In this document: piece by piece, positions 15,767 to 34,452 of the stretch
Position numbering within the stretch: position 1 is the stretch's first letter
Layout: the number at the start of each line of letters is the position of its first letter
Origin: a virus
Taxonomy: Duplodnaviria > Heunggongvirae > Uroviricota > Caudoviricetes
Direction: 5' to 3' (one strand)
Length of the DNA: 64,000 nt
Virus record (IMG/VR): IMGVR_UViG_3300025858_001097
Made by a program: the position numbers and the translations under genes
Notes under the pieces: generated by a model
Database searches by the model: none
What the model was told of the DNA's origin: nothing
The model's input: the letters and a program-made list of their open reading frames with translations, nothing else

Positions 15767-15785
15767 CTCGCGGAGATATTTTTAT

Positions 15786-15800
15786 TCTATATATTAAAAA
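15786..15800 (-). promoter_or_regulatory. promoter-like box upstream of the fibre 2 start
   Basis: tctatatattaaaaa. Confidence 0.45.
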
Positions 15801-15820
15801 TTAAAGGAAGAAAAATAAAA

Positions 15821-16561: not shown

Positions 16562-16575
16562 ATTAATTATTTTTT

Positions 16576-17415: not shown

Positions 17416-17453
17416 TTAAAAATTTCTATTTTTACTATATATAATTTTTTTTG

Positions 17454-18638
17454 TTATGGAAAACATACAGCAACCGGTGTGCTTTTATTTGTAACTGAAT
17501 TTATTCCTAATTCTCCAAAAGTATTTTCCCCCCAAGACCAAGCTTTATTATTTTTATCTAAAGCCAAAGTATTATAACCACCGCTTATGAAATTGAAAGT
17601 ATGATTTCCACAGACAGCGACCGGAGTTGATACACTTCCAGACGACGTGTTCGCGCCTAACTGTCCGTCGTTATTCCATCCCCAACACCACGCTTTTCCG
17701 TGATTATCTATCGCCATAGAATGATAATTACCAGCTTCTATATCGCAAAATGTATGACCTCCACAAACAGCCACCGGCGTACTTCTATTAGTTGATGTAT
17801 TATCTCCCAAAGTACCAACATTGAAATTTGACCCCCATGCCCAAGCTTTTCCATGATTGTCTATCGCTAATACGTGATGTTGTCCACAAGATATTTGACA
17901 AAATGTATGCGCTCCGCAAACAGCCACTGGTGTACTTCTATCTGTGGAAATATTATTACCTAAACATCCATACCCATTGTATCCCCATCCCCAAGCTTTG
18001 CCATGATTGTCTACGGATGACGAATGACGTTGTCCGCAATCTATTAGACAGAATGTATGAGTCCCGTAGACTGCAATTGGTGTGCTTTTACATACCACAG
18101 TGTTATCTCCCAATTGTCCATAATTATTATCCCCCCATGACCACAATTTACCATTATATCCTAATCCTAAAGTGTTATGACCTTCACTAGTATATCTTCC
18201 TCCTACTTTTATATAACAAAAAGTATGATCCCCGCAAACAGCCACTGGTATAGATTTTCCATTGGTAGTATTATCTCCCAATTGTCCATAACTATTATTC
18301 CCCCAAGTCCAAGCTTTCCCGTCGGTATCTATGGCTGCGCTGTGTATCCCAGTGTCTATGGCAATAAAATTGCGATTACCAAAAACGGCTCGTGGAATAC
18401 ATTTATCACCGTGTTCATTAATGCCTAATTGTCCATAACTATTATCTCCCCAAGTCCAAGCTTTGTTATAAACATCTAAAGCTATGCTATTAAAAGTTCT
18501 ACCAACAATACTTACAAAATAATCAGTTGATCCAGAATCTGTTAAATAAATTAAACAAGGAGACGATATTTCATACGCTATTTTACTATTTCGTAAAACT
18601 ATTCTATAAATGGCCATAAAAAACAGATTTTTTATCAT
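17454..18638 (-). CDS. RCC1-repeat beta-propeller protein
   Basis: At least six WxWGxNxYGQLG repeats. Confidence 0.7.
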   Translation of the reverse strand: MIKNLFFMAIYRIVLRNSKIAYEISSPCLIYLTDSGSTDYFVSIVGRTFNSIALDVYNKAWTWGDNSYGQLGINEHGDKCIPRAVFGNRNFIAIDTGIHSAAIDTDGKAWTWGNNSYGQLGDNTTNGKSIPVAVCGDHTFCYIKVGGRYTSEGHNTLGLGYNGKLWSWGDNNYGQLGDNTVVCKSTPIAVYGTHTFCLIDCGQRHSSSVDNHGKAWGWGYNGYGCLGNNISTDRSTPVAVCGAHTFCQISCGQHHVLAIDNHGKAWAWGSNFNVGTLGDNTSTNRSTPVAVCGGHTFCDIEAGNYHSMAIDNHGKAWCWGWNNDGQLGANTSSGSVSTPVAVCGNHTFNFISGGYNTLALDKNNKAWSWGENTFGELGINSVTNKSTPVAVCFP

Positions 18639-18662
18639 TTTTATATATAAAAAATCTGTTTT
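18620..18662 (-). terminator. A-tract/T-tract flanked hairpin between the epimerase and RCC1 genes; the loop carries TATATAT and the RCC1 start codon
   Basis: aaaaaacagatttttt / aaaaaatctgtttt form a perfect stem of about 14 bp with a 15-nt loop atcatttttatatat. It fills the whole intergenic spacer. Confidence 0.45.
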
Positions 18663-18683
18663 CTTAAAAACGAAATAATAGGA

Positions 18684-19568
18684 TTATATTAGTTTTTTAT
18701 AATATTCTGCTGTTTTTCGCAAACCTTCCTCCAAAATTGTTACGGGCGTCCAAGATAAAATGTCTGATGATTTTTTAAAATCAATATTAACAGATTCAAA
18801 ATTTTTACCGTTTTCTTTGAATATTATTTTTGAATTTGTTTTTATAACTTTCAATGTGGTATTAGCTAATTCTTTTATTGATGTAAGTGTTTGATTTCCA
18901 ATATTTAATACAGTTTCAGTAGTTTCTGTATTCATAAATTTTATAAAAACATCCAAAAAGTCGTCTATGTAACAAAAAGAATCTATTTGATTACCATCTC
19001 CAAAAATTATTAAATCCTCATTTTTTAAAGATTTCATTATAAATTGCGGTATAACTCGCGAATCTCCAACTGCCATATTCGGACCATATATACTTTTTAG
19101 TCTTGATATTTTTACTTTTGTTGAAAATTTCTTTCTATATTCACTACAAAGAGTTTCAGCTACTCTCTTTCCTTCTGTATAACAAGAATTTATGCCAGTG
19201 TGATCATATTCGAAAACTCTTACTGTTGAAGAATGCATTATTGGAATATCCAATTTTGTAGCTAATTCTAACGCATTTCTTGTTCCATAAATATTGGTTT
19301 CTAATGTTTTTAGAGGATCTTTGCGATAATGATCTGGGGCGGCAGGGCTTGCCAAATTATATATTTGATTAATATCCGATATGTTTATTTCCTTACGTAT
19401 ATCATGATTTATTAAATGAAAATTTTCATTTTTTGTGAAATTGATGACATTATTTTTGGAACTGGTTGAAAAATCATCCAAGCAATAAACCGTGTTGCCT
19501 TGATATAACAAACTCTTACAAAGATTAGAACCTATAAAACCGCTACCTCCTAAAACTAAAATTTTCAT
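18684..19568 (-). CDS. UDP-glucuronate decarboxylase (UDP-xylose synthase, UXS/ArnA-type extended SDR)
   Basis: GGSGFIGSNL Rossmann motif. IYNLASPAAPDHYRKDPLKTLETNIYGTRNALELA and YTEGKRVAETLCSEY closely match UXS1 signature segments. Confidence 0.75.
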   Translation of the reverse strand: MKILVLGGSGFIGSNLCKSLLYQGNTVYCLDDFSTSSKNNVINFTKNENFHLINHDIRKEINISDINQIYNLASPAAPDHYRKDPLKTLETNIYGTRNALELATKLDIPIMHSSTVRVFEYDHTGINSCYTEGKRVAETLCSEYRKKFSTKVKISRLKSIYGPNMAVGDSRVIPQFIMKSLKNEDLIIFGDGNQIDSFCYIDDFLDVFIKFMNTETTETVLNIGNQTLTSIKELANTTLKVIKTNSKIIFKENGKNFESVNIDFKKSSDILSWTPVTILEEGLRKTAEYYKKLI

Positions 19569-19571: not shown

Positions 19572-20507
19572 TTAACAACTCATATATTTTGACAATTTTT
19601 TATCTTTGAATTTTCCATCCGGATCTTTATATAAATAAGGTGTCCAAAATCCAAATTCATTAACAATTAAAAACATACCATATCTTTTGGCTATATTATT
19701 TCTGTAACGAAAATCTTTATATGAAGCAAGACTTTCTGGATTGCCCATATAAGGCTTTCCTTCATTTAAGACGTATCTATTCATCATTATTTTTCTAGAT
19801 TTACCCTTCAATTTTTCTAAGTGATAAGAAGATATATCATCTATTTTTTCTATGCTTAATCTGCGACGGAGCGGACAAGCCATTCCGCATTTTGGGCAGA
19901 ATTGTTCCATCTGCTCACGATAATCTTTGCGTGTGCGTTTCCACCAACCATGTTCAACTTCCCAACCATCGGGTCCATCATACAACATAGCGAAAGCTGC
20001 GGCCATTTCGCAGAAATAAGCCCCCTTTGGATTAATAGAAGCACTCCAAGATTCCTGCGCCCAACAATGATCTATATAATACCACATATCATCTTTATCC
20101 TTAATCACTTCATCTATAGCCACAAGAGCTGGATGATGATATATGTCATCTCGAGTGTGATCGTTTATAAAAATATGACCGAATGTTCTTACAATAACTT
20201 CACGATAATGTTCGTATCCTTTTGGAAGAGTTGTCCAAAGACCTAATTGTTCCTTTGGAAATTTTGATGCTGCATAATCACAAAATTTTTCAAACTCTGG
20301 ATGAAGGATTGGTTCGCCTCCTTGAAAACCAACCATTTTTTTAAAACCTTCAAAAGAATCTATTGCTTCTTTGAATTTTTCAAATGAAAGATAGAAAACT
20401 TTTCCATGACCGACAAATCTTGTACAATTACTACATAAATTACGACAACAATTTGTAATTTCGATTTGAATTGTATCTTGATCCCTCAAATTTATCATAA
20501 TCCCCAA
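19572..20507 (-). CDS. radical SAM enzyme with a C-terminal Cys cluster
   Basis: CRNLCSNC (CxxxCxxC) and a GGEPILHPE motif; C-terminal CPKCGMACP cluster. Confidence 0.6.
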   Translation of the reverse strand: MGIMINLRDQDTIQIEITNCCRNLCSNCTRFVGHGKVFYLSFEKFKEAIDSFEGFKKMVGFQGGEPILHPEFEKFCDYAASKFPKEQLGLWTTLPKGYEHYREVIVRTFGHIFINDHTRDDIYHHPALVAIDEVIKDKDDMWYYIDHCWAQESWSASINPKGAYFCEMAAAFAMLYDGPDGWEVEHGWWKRTRKDYREQMEQFCPKCGMACPLRRRLSIEKIDDISSYHLEKLKGKSRKIMMNRYVLNEGKPYMGNPESLASYKDFRYRNNIAKRYGMFLIVNEFGFWTPYLYKDPDGKFKDKKLSKYMSC

Positions 20508-21181
20508 GATTTTTTTCTATCTATGAGTCTTACTACTTTTTCTTCGACTGGCATGGCATAATTATGATATAAGAAGCTGAGATAATCCATGTCATATTTA
20601 GCGAAGAAATCTTTAAACATCACGAATTTTAATCCAAATTTTGCGATGTTTCTTGACAACACATAATCGTCAATAAGACTTCTTGGAGTTACTCCATTGT
20701 CCGATTCTGATTTTGTTGGGAATATATTATTAGCTGCTTCATCGGGAGTTAGATCATCTAAAGGTCTCCATAGATCTATGCACCAATCGCTGGCTATTGT
20801 AAACCAATTGCAACTTCCGATATTCCTACCATCTCTTAGAAAATATTCATCGTAACGCCAACGAAGTGATGCCATATCCATCGCTGAGTGAGCAACCGTG
20901 TCTTTTGACATTTGTGTAGTTATATCAAATATATCTGGATGTATTAAAGCATCACAATCTACATAAATATTCCAATCATTTTTCATTTCTTTTCCGAGTT
21001 CGTATATTTGCATTTTTTCATATGTTATATACCACTCTGGAAATTTACGCTCTTTTATGACATAAAAATCAGCTCCTATTTTATGAGCGTATTTTTTTAT
21101 ATATGGATATGTAATATCTGTTATATCCTTTGAATATTCATCGTTAATATTCAAAGTGAAAATTGTTTTCTTTAATCTCAC
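20495..21181 (-). CDS. putative GT-A fold nucleotide-sugar transferase
   Basis: IYVDCDALIHPD DxD-like motif in a context resembling nucleotide-diphospho-sugar transferases; weak. Confidence 0.4.
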   Translation of the reverse strand: MRLKKTIFTLNINDEYSKDITDITYPYIKKYAHKIGADFYVIKERKFPEWYITYEKMQIYELGKEMKNDWNIYVDCDALIHPDIFDITTQMSKDTVAHSAMDMASLRWRYDEYFLRDGRNIGSCNWFTIASDWCIDLWRPLDDLTPDEAANNIFPTKSESDNGVTPRSLIDDYVLSRNIAKFGLKFVMFKDFFAKYDMDYLSFLYHNYAMPVEEKVVRLIDRKKSWGL

Positions 21182-21280
21182 TGTAAAAGATTTTTTGATT
21201 TATATAAGAAAAAAAATTGAAAAGTTTTATTTTATATTTTGATTTTTAATATAATATGATTAATTATATTAATATCGATT

Positions 21281-21652
21281 TTATGCATAAGCATCGTCGT
21301 CAACAGTTATTAGTGTATTATCTACAGTAACATAAGTAGTATCTACTAGTACATGAAAACGAGCTTCACACGCACCGCCAAGTAAATTAATAAATTTATC
21401 TGTTGCTCCGAGTAAAGTATCACCCAGAGTAGTTCCACTCAAGCTTATTATTATTGTATCTCCATACAATGTTACACCGGTGTCCCCAGCCAAATCAGAT
21501 ATGAATTTTTGACCTATTAATGTTGTTGATTTATCAGCATCTCCTATTAAGTCATCAATTTCTTTTTGACCGGAAAGAGAGCTTGTATATTTGGTACCAC
21601 CCTCAATAACAATTTTATCTGCAGTAACATCATATAAATTACAAGTAGCCAT
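21281..21652 (-). CDS. hypothetical beta-rich protein (123 aa)
   Basis: ORF track; repetitive LxGDT motifs. Confidence 0.45.
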   Translation of the reverse strand: MATCNLYDVTADKIVIEGGTKYTSSLSGQKEIDDLIGDADKSTTLIGQKFISDLAGDTGVTLYGDTIIISLSGTTLGDTLLGATDKFINLLGGACEARFHVLVDTTYVTVDNTLITVDDDAYA

Positions 21653-21669
21653 ATACTTTATATTTTATT

Positions 21670-22008
21670 TTATGATGTTAATAAAACAGGCAAAATTGTA
21701 ACCGTGCCGATAGCTGGTGTTGTTGGTTGACCAACAGTGTCAACAAGTCTTAACTCATGATAATAACTACCAGCTGTAATTCCAGTTGTATCAGCAGGTT
21801 CTAATGTCACTGTAACATTCTTACCAGACAATGTTATACCAAAGCCACCAGACGTTTTTAAAATAGCCTGTGATCCAGTAGCTTCTTCTGTAGTGGACAT
21901 AGCCCATTCGGCTGTTCCGCCAGTAACAGTAGATACATCCTCGATATAAAACACAATTTGTCTGTAGTTACCTTTCCATGTTGTAAAATCTTGATTTGTT
22001 TTTCCCAT
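21670..22008 (-). CDS. hypothetical protein (112 aa)
   Basis: ORF track; promoter-like box at 22031-22040. Confidence 0.45.
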   Translation of the reverse strand: MGKTNQDFTTWKGNYRQIVFYIEDVSTVTGGTAEWAMSTTEEATGSQAILKTSGGFGITLSGKNVTVTLEPADTTGITAGSYYHELRLVDTVGQPTTPAIGTVTILPVLLTS

Positions 22009-22067
22009 TTTATTTTTTATTTTTTATTTTTATATATTAAAAAATATATTTTTTTAATTCTATTCTA

Positions 22068-25000
22068 TTATATTTCAGTGTTGTTAGCAGAAACATAGGA
22101 GTATTCAATGACATCAACAGTATATTTCAATTGAAGTTTATAACTTGGCGATGGATCCCATCCAGTAGCACTCCTTAAATTATTTTTTAATAATAGATAC
22201 GGTTTACTGCTATATATTAGAGCTTCCGCATCTATATCATTAGGACCTATTTGTCCTTGTGTATCTATCGATGCGTGACGACCCGGAGATGGTGTTTCTG
22301 AATTATACTTAACCCAATACCCCGAATGTTGAACTGTTTTAGTATCTGTTACATAATTAGTATAGCTACCAGTTTGATCTACAAAGACGTTGAAACGATA
22401 TTCTCTCATCGCTGCCAATGAATAATCGATTGCTGTCATTTGTGAAGTAGTGCCAGTATCCATTAAGTGATCCATATAGTAGTAACAATTAACCTTAACA
22501 GAGAATCCACTAGTTCCATTTCCACCTGTAACTCCGTGTGTTGTGGATAAGTCTATTTTACTTTGTGAAGCCCAAGCTGTGGCCCAACTAAACGGAGGTA
22601 TATCATTTACATAATAATACGTTACTCCAATTCCAGAGGTTCCACTACTGCCTGTTATTCCTGATGTTCCACTAGTTCCTGAAGTGCCACTAACGCCACT
22701 AGTTCCACTGGTGCCATCATTTCCAGATGTTCCGCTTGTTCCTCTAGCTCCAGATGTTCCGCTAGTTCCACTACTGCCTTGTTTTCCAGATGTTCCACTA
22801 GTTCCACTAGTGCCACCTGTTCCACTGGTTCCTGATGTACCTCCAGTTCCACTAGTTCCACTACTACCTGTTATTCCAGCGGTTCCGCTAGTTCCTGATG
22901 TACCGCCAGTGCCGCTAGTTCCACTACTGCCTTGTTTTCCAGATGTTCCACTAGTTCCACTTGTACCGCCTGTGCCTGAAGTACCACCAGTGCCATCATG
23001 TCCAGATGTTCCGCTTGTTCCACTACTACCATCATTTCCAGATGTTCCACTTGTACCGCCAGTACCATTTGTTCCTGATGTACCTCCAGTTCCACTAGTT
23101 CCACTACTACCTTGTCTTCCAGAAGTACCACTGGTTCCACTTGTACCGCCTGTACCATTTGTTCCTGATGTACCTCCAGTTCCACTGGTTCCGCTACTAC
23201 CATCATTTCCAGATGTGCCTGAAGTACCACCTGTTCCGCTAGTTCCAGAAGTACCACTACTACCATCATTACCAGATGTTCCACTGGTTCCGCTACTACC
23301 ATCATTTCCAGATGTTCCGCTAGTTCCACTACTACCATCATGTCCGGATGTTCCACTAGTTCCACTAGTTCCACCTGTGCCATTTGTTCCTGATGTACCA
23401 CCAGTTCCACTAGTTCCACTACTGCCTTGTTTTCCAGAAGTACCACTTGTGCCACTAGTTCCACCCGTACCATTTGTTCCTGATGTACCACCAGTTCCAC
23501 TGGTTCCACTACTTCCATCATGTCCTGATGTGCCTGAAGTTCCTCCAGTACCACTAGTTCCACTACTGCCATCATGTCCAGATGTTCCTGAAGTTCCACC
23601 CGTGCCTGAAGTACCGCTTGTACCACCAGTGCCATCATGTCCAGAAGTACCACTAGTTCCACTACTGCCATCGTGACCAGACGTACCTGAAGTACCACTT
23701 GTTCCACTAGTTCCTGATGTACCACTTGTTCCTGATGTACCACTACTGCCATCGTGACCAGACGTACCTGAAGTACCACTTGTTCCGCTTGTACCACTAC
23801 TTCCATCATGTCCTGATGTACCTGAAGTTCCTCCAGTACCTGAAGTTCCACTACTTCCATCATGACCAGATGTGCCTGCTGTTCCTGAAGTACCACCAGT
23901 ACCATTGGTTCCTGAAGTTCCGCCCGTTCCTGATGTACCACTACTACCATCATTTCCAGATGTTCCACTAGTTCCACCAGTTCCGTTTGTTCCTGAAGTT
24001 CCACCAGTTCCACTAGTTCCACTACTCCCTGAAGTACCGTTTGTTCCAGAAGTGCCTGAAGTGCCTCCAGTTCCACTTGTACCACTACTACCTTGTTTTC
24101 CAGAAGTACCACTTGTACCACTACTACCAGAAGCACCTGAAGTGCCTGAAGTTCCTCCAGTTCCACTAGTTCCACCTGTTCCATTTGTTCCTGATGTCCC
24201 ACCAGTTCCACTAGTCCCACTACTTCCTGTTAAACCTGAAGTTCCGCCAGTTCCTGAAGTTCCTCCTGTTCCCGAGGTACCACTACTACCTTGTTTTCCA
24301 GAAGTTCCGCTAGTTCCTGAAGTTCCTCCTGTTCCGCTGGTACCTGAAGTTCCACCAGTGCCACTAGTTCCACTACTACCATCGTGTCCAGATGTTCCAC
24401 TTGTTCCACTAGTTCCACTACTTCCTGAAGTTCCTCCAGTTCCACTAGTTCCACTGCTTCCAGAAGTTCCACTAGTCCCAGAAGTACCACTAGTACCTCC
24501 AGTACCACTAGTTCCACTACTACCTTGTTTTCCAGAAGTTCCGCTGGTTCCTGAAGTACCGCTTGTGCCGCCTGTTCCGCTAGTACCTGAAGTACCACCT
24601 GTACCACTAGTTCCACTACTGCCATCGTGTCCCGAAGTACCACTAGTACCTCCAGTTCCGCTAGTTCCACTACTACCATCATGTCCAGATGTTCCACTAG
24701 TTCCACTGCTACCTGAAGTTCCTGAAGTACCATTTGTTCCACTTGTACCTGAAGTTCCACTTGTACCACTACTACCTTGTTTTCCAGAAGTACCATTTGT
24801 ACCACTTGTACCACTACTACCTGAAGTTCCACCAGTTCCAGAAGTACCGCCAGTTCCATTTGTTCCTGAAGTGCCTCCAGTTCCGCTAGTTCCACTAGTT
24901 CCACTAGTTCCATCATGACCCGATGTTCCCGAAGTTCCACCTGTACCAGATGTTCCTGATGTCCCGCCTGTTCCGCTTGTTCCACTACTTCCATCATGAC

Positions 25001-28000
25001 CCGATGTTCCTGAAGTGCCACCCGTGCCTGAAGTACCACCTGTACCAGATGTTCCTGATGTCCCGCCTGTTCCGCTTGTTCCACTACTTCCATCATGACC
25101 CGATGTTCCTGAAGTGCCACCCGTGCCTGAAGTACCACCTGTGCCACCAGTTCCACTAGTTCCACTACTTCCAGAAGTTCCACTAGTTCCACTACTTCCA
25201 GAAGTTCCGCTTGTTCCACTACTACCATCGTGGCCAGAAGTTCCACTAGTTCCAGCAGTTCCACTTGTGCCAGAAGTGCCACCTGTTCCGCTTGTACCAC
25301 TACTTCCATCATGTCCAGATGTACCTGATGTTCCACTTGTTCCGGAAGTACCACCTGTTCCACTTGTACCACTACTTCCATCATGTCCAGATGTACCTGA
25401 TGTTCCACTTGTTCCTGCTGTACCTGATGTTCCACTTGTACCGCCTGTACCTGAAGTTCCACTACTACCTGATGTTCCACTCGTGCCACTAGTTCCCGAA
25501 GTACCACTACTACCTTGTTTTCCAGAAGTACCACTTGTACCACTAGTTCCACTACTTCCTGAAGTTCCACCAGTTCCAGAAGTACCACCTGTTCCATTTG
25601 TACCTGATGTACCACTTGTCCCGCTAGTTCCGCTAGTCCCACTACTACCATCATGTCCAGATGTTCCAGAAGTTCCAGAAGTACCACCTGTTCCGTTAGT
25701 TCCTGAAGTACCACCTGCTCCACTAGTTCCACTACTTCCATCATGACCTGAAGTTCCAGAAGTACCACTTGTCCCGCTAGTTCCGCTAGTCCCACTACTA
25801 CCATCATGTCCAGATGTTCCTGAAGTTCCAGAAGTACCACCTGTTCCACTAGTTCCACTACTTCCATCACGACCTGAAGTTCCTGAAGTGCCGCCTGTTC
25901 CGTTAGTTCCTGAAGTACCACCTGTTCCACTAGTTCCACTAGTTCCGCTTGTTCCACTACTACCACTAGTACCGCCAGTTCCGCCTGTACCAGAAGTACC
26001 ACTTGTTCCCGATGTGCCACTGCTACCATCATGACCGGAAGTTCCACTAGTTCCACTTGTTCCACTAGTTCCACTACTACCATCATGTCCAGAAGTACCA
26101 CTAGTTCCTGAAGTACCACCTGTTCCACTAGTTCCTGAAGTGCCGCCTGTTCCACTTGTACCACTGCTACCATCAACGCCCGAAGTTCCAGAAGTTCCTC
26201 CTGTACCTGATGTTCCATTTGTCCCACTTGTGCCTCCAGTGCCTGAAGTACCACTACTACCAGATGTGCCTGAAGTTCCTCCAGTACCACTAGTTCCACT
26301 ACTACCTTGTTTTCCAGAAGTACCACTAGTTCCACTACTTCCAGAAGTTCCTGAAGTGCCAGAAGTTCCCCCAGTGCCACTTGTTCCTCCAATACCACTA
26401 GTTCCACTACTTCCAGAAGTTCCTGAAGTGCCAGAAGTTCCCCCAGTGCCACTTGTTCCTCCAATACCACTAGTTCCACTACTTCCATCATAACCACTTG
26501 TTCCCGAAGTTCCTCCCGTACCTGATGTTCCTGAAGTACCACCTGTACCACTAGTTCCACTACTTCCATCATGACCACTTGTTCCAGAAGTGCCACTGCT
26601 ACCACTTGTACCGCTTGTTCCGCCAGTACCAGAAGTGCCACCTGTTCCACTAGTTCCACTAGTACCGCTACTACCATCGTGTCCTGATGTACCACTTGTT
26701 CCTGAAGTTCCTCCAGTACCACTAGTTCCGCTAGTTCCTGAAGTTCCACTACTTCCATCGTGACCAGAAGTACCACTAGTTCCACTAGTTCCGTTTGTTC
26801 CTGAAGTTCCACCAGTTCCACTACTTCCTGTCGCACCTGATGTTCCAGAGGTTCCGCCGGCACCGCTAGTTCCTGATGTACCGCCAGTTCCACTAGTTCC
26901 ACTACTTCCTCCTGTACCTGATGTGCCACTAGTTCCAGAAGTTCCACTCGTACCACCAGTTCCACTAGTTCCACTACTACCTTGTTTACCGGAAGTACCA
27001 CTTGTACCACTACTTCCAGAAGTTCCCGAAGTGCCTGAAGTTCCTCCAGTACCACTTGTTCCTCCAGTACCACTAGTTCCACTACTTCCTGTTGCGCCAG
27101 AAGTTCCAGATGTTCCGCCTGTTCCAGATGTACCACTAGTTCCACCTGTTCCAGATGTACCGCTACTCCCATCGTGACCTGAAGTACCTGATGTACCTGA
27201 AGTACCACTTGTTCCTCCTGTTCCTGAAGTTCCTCCAGTTCCGCTAGTCCCACTACTTCCTGAAGTTCCGCTAGTCCCACTTGTTCCTGAAGTTCCACCT
27301 GTGCCATTTGTTCCACTAGTACCACTTGATCCTGATACTCCACTTGTTCCACTAGTTCCTCCAGTTCCACTAGTTCCACCTGTTCCACTAGTTCCAGAAG
27401 AACCAGACGTACCACTTGTTCCGCTAGTTCCCGAAGTACCACTACTACCTTTTGCGCCCGAAGTTCCACTAGTTCCAGATATACCACTAGTTCCACCTGT
27501 ACCTGATGTACCGCTCGTGCCGCCAGTTCCGCTAGTCCCGCTACTTCCACTTGTACCACTACTACCAGATGTTCCATTAGTTCCTGAAGTACCACCAGTG
27601 CCATTCGTGCCACTCGTACCTCCAGTTCCTGAAGTACCACTACTACCTGATGTTCCACTAGTTCCACTACTTCCAGAAGTTCCACTAGTTCCACTAGTTC
27701 CAGAAGTGCCACTGCTACCTGATGTACCGCTAGATCCAGAAGTACCACTAGTTCCTGATGTACCTGAAGTTCCACTTGTTCCTGAAGTACCGCCTGTTCC
27801 ACTAGTACCGCTACTTCCTTGGGCTCCACTAGTTCCACTGGTTCCACTTGTACCCCCAGTACCGCTTGTTCCTGATGTCCCGCCTGTTCCACTAGTTCCA
27901 CTACTACCTTGAGCCCCACTAGTTCCTGAAGTACCACTGCTACCTTGTGCTCCGCTGGTTCCACTTGTACCACCAGTTCCGCTAGTTCCACTACTACCTT

Positions 28001-30764
28001 GAGCCCCGCTTGTTCCTGAAGTACCACCAGTACCACTCGTACCACTTGTACCACTTGTTCCCCCAGTACCACTAGTTCCACTACTACCTGATGTTCCACT
28101 AGTTCCACTACTTCCAGAAGTGCCTGAAGTTCCACCAGTTCCGCTTGTTCCAGATGAACCAGAAGTACCACTACTGCCCTGAGCTCCTGAAGTTCCAGAT
28201 GTACCACCAGTCCCAGATGTTCCACTAGTTCCGCCAGTTCCGCTAGTTCCACTACTTCCTGAAGTACCTGATGTTCCACTACTACCAGATGTTCCCCCCG
28301 TACCTGAAGTTCCGCTAGATCCAGATGTTCCTCCTGACCCGCTTGTACCAGATGTTCCACTTGTACCGCCAGTTCCGCTAGTTCCACTACTACCTTGAGC
28401 TCCACTAGTTCCACTCGTGCCACTAGTTCCTGAAGTTCCACTACTACCTTGAGCTCCACTAGTTCCACTTGTTCCGCTAGATCCGCTAGTTCCACTAGTA
28501 CCGCTTGTGCCCGATGTACCTGAAGTTCCACTAGAACCACTTGTACCGCTGGTTCCACTGATACCAGTCAATCCACTAGTTCCACTTGTTCCTGAGGTGC
28601 CCCCAGTTCCGCTCGTACCGCTAGATCCAGAAGTACCACTACTACCAGAAGTACCTGAAGAACCTGATGTTCCGCTAGTTCCACTACTACCTGATGTTCC
28701 ACTTGTTCCAGACGTACCACTAGTCCCGCTAGTACCTGAAGTTCCACTAGTTCCACTGGATCCTGAAGTTCCCCCAGTGCCACTAGTTCCACTACTACCT
28801 TGAGCTCCACTAGTTCCAGAAGTCCCACTACTACCTGATGTTCCACTTGTTCCAGAAGTACCACTACTACCCGATGTTCCAGATGTACCACCAGTCCCAG
28901 ATGTTCCACTACTTCCACTAGTCCCTGAAGTTCCTGATGTTCCAGACGAACCACTCGTTCCTGATGTTCCTCCTGTACCTGATGTTCCTCCGGTTCCACT
29001 ACTTCCTTGTGCTCCACTAGTTCCACTGGTTCCTGAAGTTCCGCTACTACCTGTTAAACCACTGGTTCCACTAGAACCACTAGTACCACTACTACCACTA
29101 GTTCCTGATGTTCCGCTTGTACCACTGCTGCCAGATGTTCCACTAGTACCACTACTTCCTGAAGTTCCACTAGTACCACTAGTTCCTGATGTTCCGCTTG
29201 TACCACTGCTGCCAGATGTTCCACTAGTACCACTACTTCCTGAAGTTCCACTAGTTCCGCTACTACCACTAGTTCCAGATGTACCACTACTACCTTGTGC
29301 TCCACTAGTTCCACTACTACCAGTTTCTCCTGATGTTCCGCTGGTTCCGCTTGTACCTGAAGTTCCACTGGAACCAAAACCACTAGTACCAGATGTTCCT
29401 AAACCAGCATCAGTATAAGTAAAAACAATAGGTTCGTCTAATATAAAATTGTTATTTGAATCTATCGGTGTAACATCTAATGTCCACCAAGATCCATTAT
29501 CTGTTTTAGCATCTAAATAAAAAGTTGCAAATTTAGTAGAATCGTATTCATCGAATATTCTGATTCTAGACATTCCATTGGCATTAAGACTACTTAACCA
29601 AGAACTTATATCAACACCATCTTTACTTGTCTGACTTATGTATATTTGAGTTACTGAACCGTATACAGTATTATCAAATTTTAAATATCCAGATAGAGGA
29701 TTTGATGCTGTTGTTCCTGTTAAGAAATAATATGGTTGGCTATCACCTCCAAATATTCCAGATAAACCAGAAGATCCAGGAGAACCCATACCTGATGTTC
29801 CACTAGTTCCACTTACACCACTACTTCCATAAAACCATCCATCAACACCAGATGATCCTGAAGTCCCACTACTTCCAGTTCCACCTTGAATATAAGATAT
29901 TAAATACGATTTCCCGTTTGTAGCTGAACCTCCTCCTGATGCGTAAACTGAAAATCCAGTTATTTCATAAAAATTGCCACCTAATCCAAGATTAACACTA
30001 TTAATGGGAACATTATATATGCCTACAACTGAAAGATTTTCTCTCTCTTCTATTTTTAATACGCCTTGAATATTCCACGAACTTAACCAATTATTTACAA
30101 GATCTCCATTCGCGTCCCATTTATTTATTCTTATATTTGTTACAGCCCCTAAATTTGAATTATTTATGTAGAATTTTCCATTCCCAGGAGTTGATGTACT
30201 ATTATCATAAACCCATTTACGCGTAGCTCCACCATAACCACCATCTATACCGCTACTTCCACTAGTTCCACTACTACCTCCGAGTCCTGATGTACCACTT
30301 GATCCACTAGAGCCTGATGTACCTGAAGATCCTGCTTCGCCGCTACTTCCACTTGTTCCGGATGTACCACTTGTGCCACTTGTTCCTCTACCGCTTGTTC
30401 CGCTTGTGCCACCTGTTCCACTCGTACCTCCAGTTCCACTGGTTCCGCCAGTTCCGTCTCTGCCGCTGCTACCACTTGATCCATCTCTACCACTACTACC
30501 ACTTGTTCCATCAGCTCCGCTTGATCCAAAGAAAACACCATCAACACCCGATGTACCGTCTTTTCCAGATGTGCCACTAGTTCCACCTCCACCACTTCCT
30601 GAAGATGTCGCACCAGTACATGGCAAATAATAAATATTTCCCCACTCGTCCTTTTGCCAAAGGCCGCAAAAACCATCTATAAAATCTTGACCTAAGTATA
30701 TATGCCCCGGATCTGGATTACCAATTAGTTTCGGGTCTACTCTTTGGATTTTTTTGAAACTCAT
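22068..30764 (-). CDS. giant collagen-like fibre protein 3 (2898 aa)
   Basis: Conserved N-terminal domain MSFKKIQRVDPKLIGNPDPGHIYLG. About 2250 residues of uninterrupted Gly-X-Y (mostly GTS/GSS, punctuated by GHD/GKQ/GND/GRD triplets). C-terminal globular domain of about 185 aa. Confidence 0.85.
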   Translation of the reverse strand: MSFKKIQRVDPKLIGNPDPGHIYLGQDFIDGFCGLWQKDEWGNIYYLPCTGATSSGSGGGGTSGTSGKDGTSGVDGVFFGSSGADGTSGSSGRDGSSGSSGRDGTGGTSGTGGTSGTGGTSGTSGRGTSGTSGTSGTSGSSGEAGSSGTSGSSGSSGTSGLGGSSGTSGSSGIDGGYGGATRKWVYDNSTSTPGNGKFYINNSNLGAVTNIRINKWDANGDLVNNWLSSWNIQGVLKIEERENLSVVGIYNVPINSVNLGLGGNFYEITGFSVYASGGGSATNGKSYLISYIQGGTGSSGTSGSSGVDGWFYGSSGVSGTSGTSGMGSPGSSGLSGIFGGDSQPYYFLTGTTASNPLSGYLKFDNTVYGSVTQIYISQTSKDGVDISSWLSSLNANGMSRIRIFDEYDSTKFATFYLDAKTDNGSWWTLDVTPIDSNNNFILDEPIVFTYTDAGLGTSGTSGFGSSGTSGTSGTSGTSGETGSSGTSGAQGSSGTSGTSGSSGTSGTSGSSGTSGTSGSSGTSGTSGTSGTSGTSGSSGTSGTSGSSGTSGTSGTSGSSGTSGSSGTSGLTGSSGTSGTSGTSGAQGSSGTGGTSGTGGTSGTSGSSGTSGTSGTSGSSGTSGTGGTSGTSGSSGTSGTSGTSGSSGTSGTSGAQGSSGTSGTGGTSGSSGTSGTSGTSGTSGTSGTSGTSGSSGTSGTSGSSGTSGSSGTSGSSGTSGTGGTSGTSGTSGLTGISGTSGTSGSSGTSGTSGTSGTSGTSGSSGTSGTSGAQGSSGTSGTSGTSGTSGAQGSSGTSGTGGTSGTSGTSGSGGTSGSSGTSGTGGTSGSSGTSGTSGSSGTSGTGGTSGTSGTGGTSGTSGAQGSSGTSGSSGTSGTGGTSGTSGSSGTSGTSGSSGTSGTGGTSGTSGTSGTGGTSGTSGAQGSSGTSGTGGTSGTSGAQGSSGTSGTSGAQGSSGTSGTGGTSGTSGTGGTSGTSGTSGAQGSSGTSGTGGTSGTSGTSGTSGTSGTSGSSGTSGSSGTSGTSGTSGTSGSSGTSGTSGSSGTSGTGGTSGTNGTGGTSGTNGTSGSSGTSGSSGTSGTGGTSGTSGTGGTSGISGTSGTSGAKGSSGTSGTSGTSGTSGSSGTSGTGGTSGTGGTSGTSGVSGSSGTSGTNGTGGTSGTSGTSGTSGSSGTSGTGGTSGTGGTSGTSGTSGTSGHDGSSGTSGTGGTSGTSGTGGTSGTSGATGSSGTSGTGGTSGTGGTSGTSGTSGSSGTSGTSGKQGSSGTSGTGGTSGTSGTSGTSGTGGSSGTSGTGGTSGTSGAGGTSGTSGATGSSGTGGTSGTNGTSGTSGTSGHDGSSGTSGTSGTSGTGGTSGTSGTSGHDGSSGTSGTSGTGGTSGTGGTSGTSGSSGTSGTSGHDGSSGTSGTGGTSGTSGTGGTSGTSGYDGSSGTSGIGGTSGTGGTSGTSGTSGSSGTSGIGGTSGTGGTSGTSGTSGSSGTSGTSGKQGSSGTSGTGGTSGTSGSSGTSGTGGTSGTNGTSGTGGTSGTSGVDGSSGTSGTGGTSGTSGTGGTSGTSGTSGHDGSSGTSGTSGTSGTSGHDGSSGTSGTSGTSGTGGTGGTSGSSGTSGTSGTSGTGGTSGTNGTGGTSGTSGRDGSSGTSGTGGTSGTSGTSGHDGSSGTSGTSGTSGTSGTSGHDGSSGTSGAGGTSGTNGTGGTSGTSGTSGHDGSSGTSGTSGTSGTSGTNGTGGTSGTGGTSGSSGTSGTSGTSGKQGSSGTSGTSGTSGTSGSSGTSGTGGTSGTSGTAGTSGTSGTSGHDGSSGTSGTGGTSGTSGTSGTSGHDGSSGTSGTGGTSGTSGTAGTSGTSGHDGSSGTSGTSGSSGTSGTSGSSGTSGTGGTGGTSGTGGTSGTSGHDGSSGTSGTGGTSGTSGTGGTSGTGGTSGTSGHDGSSGTSGTGGTSGTSGTGGTSGTSGHDGTSGTSGTSGTGGTSGTNGTGGTSGTGGTSGSSGTSGTNGTSGKQGSSGTSGTSGTSGTNGTSGTSGSSGTSGTSGHDGSSGTSGTGGTSGTSGHDGSSGTSGTGGTSGTSGTGGTSGTSGTSGTSGKQGSSGTSGTGGTSGTSGTSGTSGSSGTSGTGGTSGSSGTSGTSGTSGHDGSSGTSGTGGTSGTSGTGGTSGTSGTSGKQGSSGTSGTGGTSGTGGTSGLTGSSGTSGTGGTSGTNGTGGTSGTGGTSGTSGASGSSGTSGTSGKQGSSGTSGTGGTSGTSGTNGTSGSSGTSGTGGTSGTNGTGGTSGTSGNDGSSGTSGTGGTSGTNGTGGTSGTAGTSGHDGSSGTSGTGGTSGTSGHDGSSGTSGTSGTSGTSGHDGSSGTSGTSGTSGTSGTSGTSGTSGHDGSSGTSGTSGHDGTGGTSGTSGTGGTSGTSGHDGSSGTSGTGGTSGTSGHDGSSGTSGTGGTSGTNGTGGTSGTSGTSGKQGSSGTSGTGGTSGTNGTGGTSGTSGTSGHDGSSGTSGTSGNDGSSGTSGTSGNDGSSGTSGTSGTGGTSGTSGNDGSSGTSGTGGTSGTNGTGGTSGTSGTSGRQGSSGTSGTGGTSGTNGTGGTSGTSGNDGSSGTSGTSGHDGTGGTSGTGGTSGTSGTSGKQGSSGTSGTGGTSGTSGTAGITGSSGTSGTGGTSGTSGTGGTSGTSGTSGKQGSSGTSGTSGARGTSGTSGNDGTSGTSGVSGTSGTSGTSGITGSSGTSGIGVTYYYVNDIPPFSWATAWASQSKIDLSTTHGVTGGNGTSGFSVKVNCYYYMDHLMDTGTTSQMTAIDYSLAAMREYRFNVFVDQTGSYTNYVTDTKTVQHSGYWVKYNSETPSPGRHASIDTQGQIGPNDIDAEALIYSSKPYLLLKNNLRSATGWDPSPSYKLQLKYTVDVIEYSYVSANNTEI
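22626..29400 (-). repeat. about 6.8 kb of continuous 9-bp (Gly-X-Y) coding repeat
   Basis: GGN ACN AGN periodicity throughout; approximate bounds. Confidence 0.8.
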
Positions 30765-30841: not shown

Positions 30842-31432
30842 TTATCTTTGCATATCAAAGAAAATTTTATATTTAAATATTTCATCGTCAGATAGAAAAA
30901 TATCCAGATCCATTGAATTTATAATCATAACGCCGTCTTTAGCCATATCTTCGACGATGGGAGTCATTTGATCGAAAAAACGTGTTGCATCTACAATCAA
31001 AAAAGTTTTGAAAAATACAGAGCAATCTTTGGCCGTTTCTTTTACATTGAAATCTCCTGGAAGTCCAACTACATAAACTTCTTTTACATCGTTTTTATCT
31101 AAAAAATCATAAAGATTTAAACCATCTTCATTAACTCCAACAAAACCGCTCAAATCTATGGTTTTCTCACCTTTTGTGAAAATAGTAGTTTCTTTTAAAT
31201 CTAAATCTGGATGAAAATCTGCGCCTTCAGTATTTTGAATACAATGAGGAGGAATTTCATCAGTGAAAGATTTATGATTGACTGGATGCCAATCTCTTGA
31301 TGCTACAGTTAAATCAAATTTATCTTTGATTTCGTTAATTATAGGAATAATTCTATCTCCGAAAGGAACAGGATATGTTCCACCGGGCATAAAATCCTTT
31401 TGAACATCAACAATAAATAAAGCTCTTTTCAT
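30842..31432 (-). CDS. isochorismatase-family protein, PncA (nicotinamidase)-like, with the catalytic Cys position apparently substituted
   Basis: IVDVQKDF (Asp), SRDWHP...PPHC metal-binding residues and TKGE (Lys) are present. The segment aligning to the PncA GIATDHCV reads GLPGDFNV. Confidence 0.55.
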   Translation of the reverse strand: MKRALFIVDVQKDFMPGGTYPVPFGDRIIPIINEIKDKFDLTVASRDWHPVNHKSFTDEIPPHCIQNTEGADFHPDLDLKETTIFTKGEKTIDLSGFVGVNEDGLNLYDFLDKNDVKEVYVVGLPGDFNVKETAKDCSVFFKTFLIVDATRFFDQMTPIVEDMAKDGVMIINSMDLDIFLSDDEIFKYKIFFDMQR

Positions 31433-31433
31433 A

Positions 31434-31799
31434 TTATTCTAATCTAATAACACCACTATCAACTTCAAATGTTTTCTTTTCTACCAGAGTGTCTGGCAAA
31501 ACAAAAGTTTTTCCATCCTGTAAAACCATAACAGTTCCTTTCTTTGGAAAATGAACAGGATTTTTGCATGTTTCGCTATGGAATAAAAAGGAATTAAATG
31601 CTGGTTTTAATGAAAGACGTCCATTGGTTTTCAAATAACCCATGTATTCGTGCCCTTCAATTTCATAAACATATAAGGTGATCCCATTCACGACAACATG
31701 TCTTTTAGCATTCATTTCTTTATCAATATCAACTTTCTGTTTACAACCAGTAAACAGAAAAAGACACATTATTACTAATAATCCTAAAAATTTTTTCAT
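31434..31799 (-). CDS. lipoprotein (121 aa)
   Basis: Signal peptide with lipobox LFTGC. Confidence 0.5.
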   Translation of the reverse strand: MKKFLGLLVIMCLFLFTGCKQKVDIDKEMNAKRHVVVNGITLYVYEIEGHEYMGYLKTNGRLSLKPAFNSFLFHSETCKNPVHFPKKGTVMVLQDGKTFVLPDTLVEKKTFEVDSGVIRLE

Positions 31800-31819
31800 T
31801 TTACAAATATATTAATTTT

Positions 31820-32800
31820 TTAATAGTTAAAAAAATTCTTTTTAACTATATCTATAGCTTTTTGTGTTCTTTCTTCCCAATCAGTTCCACTCACAACCTC
31901 CATTTTTAAATTTTTAGATTTAAAAAAGTTGTATTGGAAATCACCAAGATCATCTCTTTTTTCTTTTGAAAGGCGAGTTCCATCTTGTATATAAGGGGCA
32001 TCTTTATCTAAGAAAATGTATAAATCGAATTTGTTTGCTTCTTCAATCCAATTATCGAATACGGGTTCAAGATCGAAGAAAAATTTAGAATAAGATTTTG
32101 TTGTATTTAAATTTGTGTCGCTAAATAATATCCTATTAGCGTGTTTTATTTCTTCGATTATGCCACTAGCATGAGCTTTTCCAACATTCATGATATCTTT
32201 TATAGTTGTATTGTCTGAATGTTCGATTATATCTCTACCCCACTCTTTTACATAAGATGTTTGAAAAACTTTTGACAATTTTTCTGTAAGAACTGTTTTT
32301 CCAGTACTTTCTGTTCCACACAGACATATTTTCTTAACAAAATAAGGTCTTGCTACAAGTGATATATAATCCCAATACTTGAAAGGATTTTCTCTTATCT
32401 GAGTGCCACTTATTGGAACAGTTTCACGTTTTTCGTCAAATATTACATATCCACAATTCATATACTCAGCAACATACTCTGCGTAAGGTTCTGAAGCAAA
32501 CACAACATCTACATTATCTAAAGTTTTACTTATGTGATCAGCCCATAGTTTAGATACTTCCCTATCAGAAACAGAAGTATATGGAAGTTTTACATCGGTA
32601 TATCTTATAATAACTTTATAATCATCCCTATATTTATCCGTAAGCCAGTGAAGTCTCACGTAACCTGGTATGGTTTCTTTTTCGTCATTCATACATAAAA
32701 GAACATATAAGAGATCACATTTCTCTTTAGCAAAATTTATAAGTGCTTCGTGACCTAAAGAAATTGGTTCTGCTTTTAAAATTATCAGTCCTCTTATCAT
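31820..32800 (-). CDS. nadR: NadR-like bifunctional NMN adenylyltransferase / ribosylnicotinamide kinase (no HTH domain)
   Basis: N-terminal cytidylyltransferase-like PISLGHEAL (H/TxGH); central P-loop GTESTGKT of the RNK domain; 326 aa. Confidence 0.7.
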   Translation of the reverse strand: MIRGLIILKAEPISLGHEALINFAKEKCDLLYVLLCMNDEKETIPGYVRLHWLTDKYRDDYKVIIRYTDVKLPYTSVSDREVSKLWADHISKTLDNVDVVFASEPYAEYVAEYMNCGYVIFDEKRETVPISGTQIRENPFKYWDYISLVARPYFVKKICLCGTESTGKTVLTEKLSKVFQTSYVKEWGRDIIEHSDNTTIKDIMNVGKAHASGIIEEIKHANRILFSDTNLNTTKSYSKFFFDLEPVFDNWIEEANKFDLYIFLDKDAPYIQDGTRLSKEKRDDLGDFQYNFFKSKNLKMEVVSGTDWEERTQKAIDIVKKNFFNY

Positions 32801-33636
32801 TCAAATATTTTTTTTATATTTTTGAAGTTGTTATTTATAATCAGATTATAATCATAATATTTCTTGGATTCATTCATTTTAATTTCATTAATATTTCTTT
32901 TCTTATTCCACAAATAACTTGATTTTATTTCAAAGACTATGTTTGTATTTTTTATTCTATAGTCTATATAATAATTATGTTCTTTTCCGCTATCATCAAA
33001 ATAACTTATACGAGGTCCTCTTTCAATCAAATCAAATTTACCGATGGATTCAACAAATTTTAAAAATTTTAATTCATAACTGCTTTGATAATCTATGCCA
33101 TTATATTGTTTTATTCTTATTCTTCCCCATCCACTATTAGGTTTTCTTCTCCCTTCTTTAAAAGCTTTAATGGCTGCATCACTCATTCTTTTTTTAATAT
33201 CATCAGATAGTTTAGTCCCCTTTCTTTTTTCTGCCATTTTTATCCATCCTTGTTTTTCTTTTATTTTTTGTTTAGAAGATTCCCAAGTAAAAGGGTTTCC
33301 GTTCTCATTCAACCATTTTTTAAGCCCTATTTTAGCATTATTGTTTGGTTTTCCAAAATTTCCGTTTCTATCTCCTTTATTTTGACATTTGGTACAAAAA
33401 TGTTCATTTTTATCTGGTTTTAGATCTCTTATTCTTCTTTCGAATATTACACCACAATCATCACATTTTACTTTTATAAATTTTATTCTATAATCTCTTT
33501 TTGATTTTAGTAATGACCAATGAACTAAAAAAGGTTCGTTTATATTTGGTCTATAACCGAGTGTTTTTTTCCATCTGTCGGGTTGAGTGTAATGTGTTAA
33601 GACAACTTCAACGTTTTCATATTCTTTTATATACAT
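32797..33636 (-). CDS. putative homing endonuclease (zinc finger, NUMOD3-like motif and PD-(D/E)XK-like C-terminus)
   Basis: CDDCG...CTKC; KGTKLSDDIKKRMSDAAIKAFKEG resembles NUMOD3; C-terminal D...E.K pattern (IDYRI...IVFEIKS). Confidence 0.4.
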   Translation of the reverse strand: MYIKEYENVEVVLTHYTQPDRWKKTLGYRPNINEPFLVHWSLLKSKRDYRIKFIKVKCDDCGVIFERRIRDLKPDKNEHFCTKCQNKGDRNGNFGKPNNNAKIGLKKWLNENGNPFTWESSKQKIKEKQGWIKMAEKRKGTKLSDDIKKRMSDAAIKAFKEGRRKPNSGWGRIRIKQYNGIDYQSSYELKFLKFVESIGKFDLIERGPRISYFDDSGKEHNYYIDYRIKNTNIVFEIKSSYLWNKKRNINEIKMNESKKYYDYNLIINNNFKNIKKIFE

Positions 33637-33702
33637 AAGAACTTTTTATTCTTATATATTAAAAACTAAAAATCACTTTTAACCTTTTCATTGTGGTCAT
33701 TT

Positions 33703-34128
33703 TCATTCACTCCAATCTTCTTCACCATACGGATCCAAATCATTAATTATTCTTTTATTGAGTTTATATTCTCTTTTATGTTCTCTCTTTTTTTCTTTCC
33801 ATTCACTATAACTTCCACAATGATGATGTCTTATCATATTACATATATCTGGGAAACTTCTAACTACTTTAGTTGGCAAACTATATATATTTATATCTGA
33901 TGATGCACAATTATCTAATAGATGTAATATATAATCAATAACATAATCTTCATTTTGATCTTTATAATGTTTTAAAAATTTTATAATGTCATCGACATTC
34001 TTCCAGCTTAACTCGATTTTTTTTAAATCTAATATAGCTTGTGCGGCTTCTTCGCGTGTTAAATCTGTTCGATAACCATATTTATCGAAATCTTTAAAAT
34101 CTTCAAATTTAGATAAATTACTTATCAT
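33703..34128 (-). CDS. hypothetical protein with a C-terminal DPYGEEDW motif
   Basis: 141 aa. The motif is shared with 60039..60482 and with the disrupted ORF at 63661..63881. Confidence 0.5.
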   Translation of the reverse strand: MISNLSKFEDFKDFDKYGYRTDLTREEAAQAILDLKKIELSWKNVDDIIKFLKHYKDQNEDYVIDYILHLLDNCASSDINIYSLPTKVVRSFPDICNMIRHHHCGSYSEWKEKKREHKREYKLNKRIINDLDPYGEEDWSE

Positions 34129-34131
34129 ATG

Positions 34132-34452
34132 TCATTTAACTTTTTTAGTTTCATAAATATAACACTCATACCATCTTGAAGATACTCCATATTCACATAA
34201 TACATTTTCAAGAGATTGTTTGGGGAATTTAGTAAAAGATCCTTTTATTTCCAAGAACCAAGAATCTGGCACATATTTTTCTTTTATCCATTCTCTTGGA
34301 TCTTTTTCCCATCCATTTAATATATTATACCAACCTTCACTTTTATATTTATTTGTGAGTTCTCCAACGAGAATTTCTTCGCCATTATTATGTTTAAGAA
34401 TTATAATATCTTCAATTTCAATTTCGTCAAAACTTACTTTTTTCAATTTCAT
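34132..34452 (-). CDS. hypothetical protein (106 aa)
   Basis: ORF track. Confidence 0.5.
   Translation of the reverse strand: MKLKKVSFDEIEIEDIIILKHNNGEEILVGELTNKYKSEGWYNILNGWEKDPREWIKEKYVPDSWFLEIKGSFTKFPKQSLENVLCEYGVSSRWYECYIYETKKVK

Follow-up and report, generated by a model that had tools for sequence, protein, structure and literature searches.

A predicted collagen-like fibre with 750 unbroken Gly-X-Y triplets, encoded by a relative of the 735-kb phage LR756501.1

How long can an uninterrupted collagen-like repeat be in a viral protein, and what would a phage do with it? The question is raised by one gene (22068..30764, - strand) in a 64,000-nucleotide stretch of DNA from a tailed virus (Caudoviricetes; IMG/VR virus record IMGVR_UViG_3300025858_001097), which we refer to as the window. 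According to the list of open reading frames (ORFs) and the translation, the product of this gene, hereafter the giant protein, has 2898 residues. An earlier note on the same DNA, made without database searches, had counted about 750 consecutive Gly-X-Y triplets (about 2250 residues) in it, seen no break, and predicted a triple helix of roughly 0.6 µm. We think it probable, with room for doubt, that the product is a fibre on the virion of a large tailed phage, a relative of LR756501.1, and that it is a collagen-like homotrimer, which may carry glycans.

The Gly-X-Y array of the giant gene

A run-finding script located a single maximal run of Gly at every third residue, at residues 464-2713 (22626..29375, -), comprising exactly 750 triplets and 2250 residues, as the earlier note had estimated. 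The start that it gave, 22626, was exact, whereas its end, 29400, lies 25 nt too far. The script found no break in the run, again in agreement with that reading, and the copies recovered from other assemblies are unbroken too. Shorter Gly-X-Y runs, of 4-17 triplets, all lie within the first 341 residues. The giant protein matched the Pfam Collagen model (PF01391) with 607 bits (cut-off 27), and the probability of 750 in-phase Gly residues arising by chance at 33% Gly is about 1e-357. At 0.286-0.29 nm per residue, 750 triplets would form a triple helix of 640-650 nm, which upholds the arithmetic behind the earlier 0.6 µm; the presumed triple-helical shaft (~645 nm) would have 2.2 times the triplets of fibrillar collagen (~338), where "roughly twice" had been claimed.

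Gly, Ser, and Thr make up 93% of the array. The X position is occupied by Thr in 560 triplets (75%), by Ser in 113, and by His in 27, and the Y position by Ser in 552 (74%), Gly in 108, and Asp in 36, with GTS (435), GSS (112), GTG (102), and GHD (27) as the most frequent triplets. There is no Pro in the array, as had been noted before. Within the GTS/GSS/GTG background stand about 60 polar punctuation triplets (GHD, GKQ, GND, GAQ, and others), most of them followed by GSS. These are irregularly spaced, with GAQ restricted to the N-terminal quarter of the array and GHD, GKQ, and GND found beyond that quarter; a search of the array for a higher-order period of the punctuation triplets revealed none beyond that of shuffled sequences. 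The G+C content of the array is ~50%, compared with ~29% in its flanks, solely because of its Gly, Thr, and Ser codons.

All 750 Gly codons of the array keep GG, with A (419), T (240), C (67), or G (24) as the third base. Selection on the frame could be assessed in the collagen block proximal to the N-terminus, which the giant protein shares with a fibre paralogue in the window (paralogue B, 1256 aa; 5602..9372, -). The two blocks are 82% identical in DNA and nearly identical in protein; of 100 codons compared, 55 were identical, and the remainder comprised 38 synonymous and 7 nonsynonymous differences, indicating purifying selection on the Gly-X-Y frame of the proximal block. The ATG start of the giant gene gives the N-terminus MSFKKIQ, which is conserved across the family. 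Shadow ORFs, free of stops over as much as 1442 aa, occur in the other frames and on the opposite strand of the array (e.g., 24230..28558, -, and 23872..24918, +). We rejected these as genes and regard them as by-products of the repeat, because the Gly-X-Y frame alone links the conserved N-terminus to the C-terminal domain.

An assembly artefact, named by the earlier note as a possible undoing of its reading, was examined in the repeat structure of the DNA and in further copies of the gene. The longest exact repeat inside the array is 107 nt, no 127-mer is repeated, and ~93% of the 31-mers within the giant gene are unique. Tandem Repeats Finder reported mostly 55-85% matches in the array, together with one 99-nt duplication (2.2 copies, 98%). 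Repeated 31-mers numbered 439 in the array vs. ~7 in codon-shuffled versions of the same protein, an excess that points to some recent internal duplications. A 93-kb contig in ENA ERZ27257423 carries a copy of 2964 aa with 772 unbroken triplets, and a 97-kb contig in JGI 3300010352 a copy of 2913 aa with 755; the contig in ERZ795026 is cut within the giant gene after at least 749 unbroken triplets, and several more contigs terminate inside the array. A look-up of the exact giant protein sequence returned no record.

These copies differ from that in the window by 0-2 substitutions and by in-frame indels of 45, 72, 81, 99, 153, and 450 nt, and every length difference between assemblies is a multiple of 9 nt. 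All five indels examined between complete copies are flanked by exact repeats of 51-107 nt, a pattern that fits real unequal recombination and equally well mis-joins of short reads. All of the assemblies are built from short reads, although they come from different projects and assemblers. An artefactual length, produced when a far shorter repeat was expanded or chimerically joined during assembly, would be in keeping with the short reads, with the many contigs that break in the gene, and with indels bounded by exact repeats. Such an origin appears very unlikely, however, given the degenerate DNA of the array, the agreement of three complete assemblies and one cut assembly (750, 755, 772, and at least 749 triplets), and the total of 792 triplets in the shaft of the syntenic relative LR756501.1. 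The array is therefore real, while its exact triplet count is uncertain by ~3%, since the copies differ by in-frame indels and the reads are short.

Domain anatomy and relatives of the giant protein

Outside the array, the giant protein begins with a 57-residue module (30594..30764, -) of the pattern MSFKKIQ.. DP..IGNP..G.IYLG.D..GLW.K, which we presume to be the anchor that attaches the protein to the virion. The module is common to paralogue B, to a second fibre paralogue in the window (paralogue A, 1335 aa; 11759..15766, -), to 14 metagenomic proteins, to IMG/VR loci, and to three fibre ORFs of LR756501.1; it measures ~45-57 aa in the family and has 14 invariant columns across 14 sequences. 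It is followed by proximal collagen segments (residues 58-180; 30225..30593, -) with runs of 7, 16, and 17 triplets separated by single-residue breaks, by a beta-barrel knob (knob 1, residues 181-293; 29886..30224, -), by further short collagen segments of 6, 5, and 4 triplets (residues 294-341; 29742..29885, -), and by knob 2 (residues 342-463; 29376..29741, -), which aligns with knob 1 and with the knobs of the paralogues. The order of the family, a collagen segment followed by a GGYGGATR-type knob, is seen in the giant protein. Beyond the array lies a non-collagen domain of 185 aa (residues 2714-2898; 22071..22625, -), the presumed distal tip.

The proximal collagen of all family members also carries a recurrent G-x-[FWL]-[FYL]-G-S-S-G motif (GVFFGSSG, GWFYGSSG, GSFLGSSG), in which two bulky hydrophobic residues accompany a break of one residue in the register. 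It occurs at residues 72-82 and 305-315 of the giant protein and in paralogues A and B, and may act as a kink or registration knot.

An AlphaFold2 model of the knob is a beta-barrel with a predicted local distance difference test score (pLDDT) of 88. It had no convincing match in the PDB; in BFVD it matched, with template modelling scores of 0.80-0.85, dozens of predicted viral "collagen triple helix repeat" structures from uncultured Caudovirales, from cyanophages S-CAM7 and S-H34 ("baseplate wedge tail fiber connector"), and from giant-virus bins. Knob 2 likewise matched, by tblastn, a "putative tail fiber" gene of Pelagibacter phage HTVC010P and "baseplate wedge tail fiber connector" genes of cyanophages; these labels are depositor annotations. 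A word-index search with the knob alignment returned 2365 candidates, none of them significant, and missed the recorded paralogues of the window too, suggesting that this index is blind to knob-bearing proteins. In the giant protein, knob 1, knob 2, and the C-terminal domain flank the array and would be candidate trimerisation or nucleation domains.

The closest large relative was found by tblastn with residues 1-463, which matched LR756501.1 (735,411 bp, uncultured, unannotated) at four places with 49% identity; LR756503.1 is a second record of identical length and match coordinates. The LR756501.1 genome is that of a phage of record size, placed in the "Mahaphage" clade, whose hosts are predicted to be Bacteroidetes (PMC12607003). 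Upstream of the giant gene, the window and LR756501.1 share the order of six genes, at 55-71% amino-acid identity, namely those for a 172-aa protein, a TonB-dependent receptor, PnuC, a NadR-like protein, a 121-aa protein, and a nicotinamidase, and fibre genes follow them in both genomes. This collinearity indicates that the window comes from a relative of that lineage.

The positional counterpart of the giant gene in LR756501.1 is an ORF of 3487 aa (record ~399879-410342). Like the giant gene, it lies downstream of the genes for the TonB receptor, PnuC, NadR, and nicotinamidase, and its product has the same order of anchor, knob 1, and knob 2 (knob 2 being 59% identical) and a Pro-free shaft with Thr at X and Ser at Y. 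Unlike the giant protein's shaft, that of the LR756501.1 protein is broken twice, by a Cys-rich insert of 63 aa and a globular domain of 387 aa, which leave runs of 246, 308, and 238 triplets, and the protein ends in an unrelated C-terminal domain. The shaft totals are similar despite these inserted nodes (792 vs. 750 triplets), which hints that shaft length itself may be under selection, as judged from these two genomes. In the reverse complement of LR756501.1 388873-430342 (locus L019), four large collagen-like ORFs stand in a row, at 7413..9857 (814 aa), 10666..19158 (2830 aa), 20001..30464 (the 3487-aa counterpart), and 34809..38399 (1196 aa); two of them are Pro-rich (GPT/GPQ type), and their longest run has 257 triplets.

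Other anchor-bearing proteins are shorter, with 308-1488 aa and runs of 5-43 triplets. A HMMER search with residues 1-1200 of the giant protein against 1.84 billion representative proteins gave 47,501 matches, and the longest unbroken run among the best 150 of these was 337 triplets, in a Pro-rich protein. In IMG/VR, knob 2 matched 37 loci, with 195 triplets as the longest unbroken run. Several of these loci encode collagen-like ORFs of 2.7-3.6 kaa (L036 from nt 9212, 2745 aa; L048 from nt 3011, 3572 aa; L035 from nt 5861, 2707 aa) that resemble the giant protein in knob homology, in Pro-poor Ser/Thr Gly-X-Y composition, and in a total of 586-690 triplets. They differ from it in their N-termini and in their beads-on-a-string layout, with a knob of 80-118 aa every 115-175 triplets. 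Some of the beads-on-a-string ORFs are on viral contigs of 38-48 kb, roughly a quarter of which is then taken up by a single fibre gene. Tail-fibre and minor tail proteins of PHROG 1806, 5073, and 6320, the putative tail fiber of HTVC010P, and the collagen-repeat and baseplate-connector proteins of cyanophages share with the giant protein the combination of Gly-X-Y and globular domains, the tail-fibre context, and the knob, but have tens of triplets rather than 750. When the array was searched against PDB sequences, the matches were all animal collagens with the same Gly periodicity and were uninformative.

In a survey of 2008, the longest unbroken Gly-X-Y runs had ~340-450 triplets and belonged to a Trichodesmium erythraeum protein and to fibrillar collagens (PMC2443231); long and unbroken like that of the giant protein, these runs are nevertheless shorter and Pro-rich. 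Prokaryotic collagen-like chains of up to ~2000 triplets, with interruptions, have been reported (PMC11923368), and annelid cuticle collagens form very long helices (PMC11766948). Our literature search found no papers describing giant collagen-like fibres in huge phages. The earlier claim that the array is far beyond typical segments thus holds for its unbroken run, which exceeds those found elsewhere (337, 308, and 195 triplets) in a survey of the best 150 HMMER matches and about 45 related loci, but not for its total size, which has precedents. The exceptional feature is the absence of any interruption. By sequence comparison, the giant protein is the extreme member of a family of predicted collagen-like phage fibres, and giant fibre ORFs are common in IMG/VR.

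Structure, stability, and placement of the proposed fibre

In the fibre that we propose, three chains would be joined to the virion by their conserved N-terminal modules of 57 residues. Farther out would come short collagen segments, their register held by the two beta-barrel knobs, and then a single unbroken (Gly-Thr/Ser-Ser/Gly)750 homotrimeric helix of ~0.65 µm, at the end of which the unique 185-residue beta-rich domain would touch the host. Since the shaft has neither Pro nor salt-bridge clamps, its stability would probably come from O-glycosylation of Thr/Ser by phage enzymes together with the cooperativity of its great length, and possibly also from lateral His-Asp, Lys-Gln, or Asn-Asp contacts at the ~60 punctuation triplets. 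The array would lengthen and shorten by whole triplets through recombination between its degenerate repeats. With a fibre of this length, a large virion that diffuses slowly could have about twice its encounter radius, or could reach through capsule or matrix. At least three paralogues share the N-terminal module and have different distal ends, suggesting that all dock at the same kind of virion site, with specificities that can be exchanged.

Several observations weigh against this proposal. A test for stabilising residues in the array, either Pro/hydroxyproline (Hyp) or salt bridges of KGE/KGD type, was negative: KGD, KGE, and RG[DE] are all absent, and the charged residues amount to 36 Asp, 1 Glu, 11 Lys, and 3 Arg out of 2250, so that the charge pairs that the earlier note had suggested as a source of stability can be dismissed. 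On the Persikov/Brodsky host-guest scales, Thr in the X position and Ser in the Y position reportedly form helices poorly. Gly at Y, which is treated as an interruption in the collagen-folding literature (PMC11923368), occurs in 14% of the triplets, at a mean spacing of 5.9 and a maximum of 42 triplets. The C-terminal domain had no match in Pfam, PHROGs, phage genomes (tblastn), IMG/VR, or GTDB genomes, and its single-sequence AlphaFold2 model is all-beta and unusable (pLDDT 44). The candidate glycosyltransferase described below has a weak Pfam match and none in NCBIfam, and no capsid, portal, or terminase genes were identified in the window, whose assignment to a phage is based on the fibre genes, the homing endonucleases, and the synteny with LR756501.1. 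The triple helix, moreover, is read from sequence, and the placement on the virion, at the tail rather than the head, from homology.

Could the array instead be flexible? A heavily O-glycosylated Gly/Ser/Thr tether, mucin-like or transiently helical, leading from the anchor to the distal domain would suit the lack of Pro, the near absence of charge, the frequent Gly at Y, the 93% Gly, Ser, and Thr, and the glycosylation-related genes nearby. However, a disordered linker needs neither Gly at every third residue over 750 triplets nor the asymmetry of Thr at X and Ser at Y. Nor would it have to keep register, which is maintained here through all 108 G-x-G-G sites and every indel and which, with the X/Y asymmetry, argues for a periodic three-residue structure; relatives, too, hold the same strict periodicity for hundreds of triplets. 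We therefore consider the tether unlikely, if not negligibly so. A compact polyglycine-II/polyproline-II bundle into which the chain folds back, comparable to the snow-flea antifreeze protein or to phage adhesins of gp38 type and far shorter than 0.65 µm, strikes us as extremely improbable. Gly-Gly sites in Gly-rich tripeptide repeats could provide the turns, but those of the array are irregular, its punctuation is no more periodic than in shuffles, and such bundles need no unbroken register. The periodicity reported in the earlier note stands, then, and a homotrimeric collagen-like helix would be a more plausible form of the array than a disordered linker, with the note's triple helix itself a prediction.

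If the shaft is helical, what could stabilise it? Glycosylated Thr stabilises triple helices and can replace Hyp (PMC11923368, PMC11766948, PMC8968730), and in BclA and Riftia cuticle collagen, which are Thr-rich and Hyp-free or Hyp-poor, it is held to do so (PMC8968730, PMC11766948, PMC11923368). Those proteins place Thr at Y, mostly after a Pro at X (GPT), whereas the giant protein has Thr at X, Ser at Y, and no Pro; accordingly, a test for the GPT-type glycosylation site with Thr at Y, as in BclA, Mimivirus fibrils, and Riftia-type collagen, was negative (Thr at Y in 8 of 750 triplets). Two genes of the cluster hint at the glycosylation that the earlier note had also invoked. One encodes a GT25-like glycosyltransferase (4880..5539, -; Pfam Glyco_transf_25, 30.4 bits, cut-off 24; weak PHROG glucosyltransferase matches), a candidate enzyme for modifying the fibre, on which it may act. 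The other encodes a sugar-nucleotide epimerase/dehydratase (SDR; 18684..19568, -; Pfam Epimerase, 1e-38; PHROG nucleotide-sugar epimerase, 3e-52), with NCBIfam matches under the equivalog cut-offs. Because glycosylated Thr can replace Hyp and both genes are in the cluster, glycosylation would be the leading candidate for shaft stability.

The placement of the fibre is suggested by homology. The centre of paralogue A matched tail-fibre or tailspike genes of Stenotrophomonas, Streptomyces, and Flavobacterium phages by tblastn, and this protein, which has several collagen runs besides the shared anchor, proximal collagen, and knob, matched PHROG tail-fibre families; paralogue B, which likewise carries the anchor, the knob, and the proximal collagen, matched the PHROG tail spike family phrog_4636 (5e-32). 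The distal parts of the two differ and are tailspike- or tail-fibre-like. These homologies, with those of the knob, favour a location at the tail or baseplate. A collagen-like fibre on the capsid or neck, in the manner of head hairs or whiskers, serving in adhesion to particles or mucus or in environmental sensing rather than in primary receptor binding, would agree with the lack of a direct link to baseplate genes in the window, with the occurrence of the knob fold in giant-virus collagen-repeat proteins, and with the many equivalent sites on a capsid, which at least three paralogues with one anchor would suit. Such a head fibre seems to us distinctly improbable, since the paralogues bear tail-spike and tail-fibre domains and the knob homologues in cultured phages carry depositor labels of tail fibre or baseplate connector. 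For a tail fibre, the C-terminal domain is presumed from its position to serve in receptor binding and/or trimer nucleation. A distal receptor-binding domain with recognisable fold or homology was sought in the giant protein and not found; a word-index search for homologues of the C-terminal domain gave a 135-aa fragment of the same protein as its sole match, and in JGI metagenomes the domain was present in one 1.9-kb contig.

We raise one further idea, tentatively and as a possibility that we would not favour at present. A homotrimer of ~0.65 µm that stays in register over 750 near-identical triplets with no Pro, clamps, or node would imply a principle of stabilisation and registration beyond current folding rules, and would serve a megaphage-type virus as a length-tunable, long-range capture line that offsets slow diffusion. 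Such a principle might lie, for example, in O-glycans added densely by phage-encoded enzymes or in a lateral "barcode" of aperiodic His-Asp/Lys-Gln contacts.

If the array does fold as a triple helix, no virus or prokaryote examined here would encode a longer collagen-like helix without a break. The array's Pro-free, nearly chargeless chemistry, with Thr at X and Ser at Y, would be unexplained by current rules of stability and folding, and would make it a test case for stabilisation by glycosylation, for register control, and for folding without nucleation nodes, as well as a possible template for Pro-free recombinant collagen materials. It would also predict that relatives of the largest phages bear micron-scale fibres that equal or exceed the virions themselves in length, with consequences for host-encounter rates and as a morphological marker in cryo-electron tomography of digester, sediment, or lake samples.

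The fibre cluster and other genes of the window

The window has a G+C content of ~29%, nearly all of its genes on one strand, and no tRNA genes. A megablast search of an 11-kb flank against phages gave no match, and a look-up of the gene at the left edge added ~1 kb of the region, in which there were no hallmark genes; that of the gene at the right edge returned nothing. The sample accessions, searched for in the literature, led to no paper. Directly downstream of the giant gene are two small ORFs of 112 and 123 aa (21281..22008, -), which adjoin it in every assembly recovered and have a weak match to a PHROG family of unknown function; from their position, we would guess at a role in fibre assembly. 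Between the genes for paralogues A and B lies that for a 707-aa protein (9636..11759, -), listed here for its position alone, which had no match in Pfam, PHROG, or phage tblastn searches.

Interleaved with the fibre genes are those for a radical-SAM protein (19572..20507, -) and an AMMECR1 protein (3362..3922, -), which, like the GT25-like and SDR proteins, are possible fibre-modifying enzymes. The cluster also includes an RCC1-repeat (beta-propeller) protein (17454..18638, -) and a Gly_rich_2-domain protein (15821..16648, -), both of which may be further virion or adhesion components.

On the other side of the giant gene, the genes shared with LR756501.1 form part of a phage-borne island for uptake and salvage of nicotinamide adenine dinucleotide (NAD) at 30842..38056 (-). 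Its genes encode a TonB-dependent receptor of the outer membrane that carries a signal peptide (35457..37541, -), a PnuC transporter for nicotinamide mononucleotide (NMN; 34449..35018, -), a NadR-like NMNAT/kinase (31820..32800, -), and a nicotinamidase/isochorismatase (30842..31432, -), as well as a PBP-family protein. A TonB-dependent receptor encoded by a virus is unusual.

The window further carries three M28/M42-like peptidase paralogues of PHROG 4191 (469..1587, -; 39971..41467, -; and 45585..46733, +). Genes at 47253..52291 and 57616..59268 encode an HNH endonuclease, an ATP-dependent DNA ligase, a PPK2 polyphosphate kinase, a PRPP synthetase, and a 550-aa homing endonuclease. Two DUF7487 proteins are encoded at 57616..59268 and 61385..62275.

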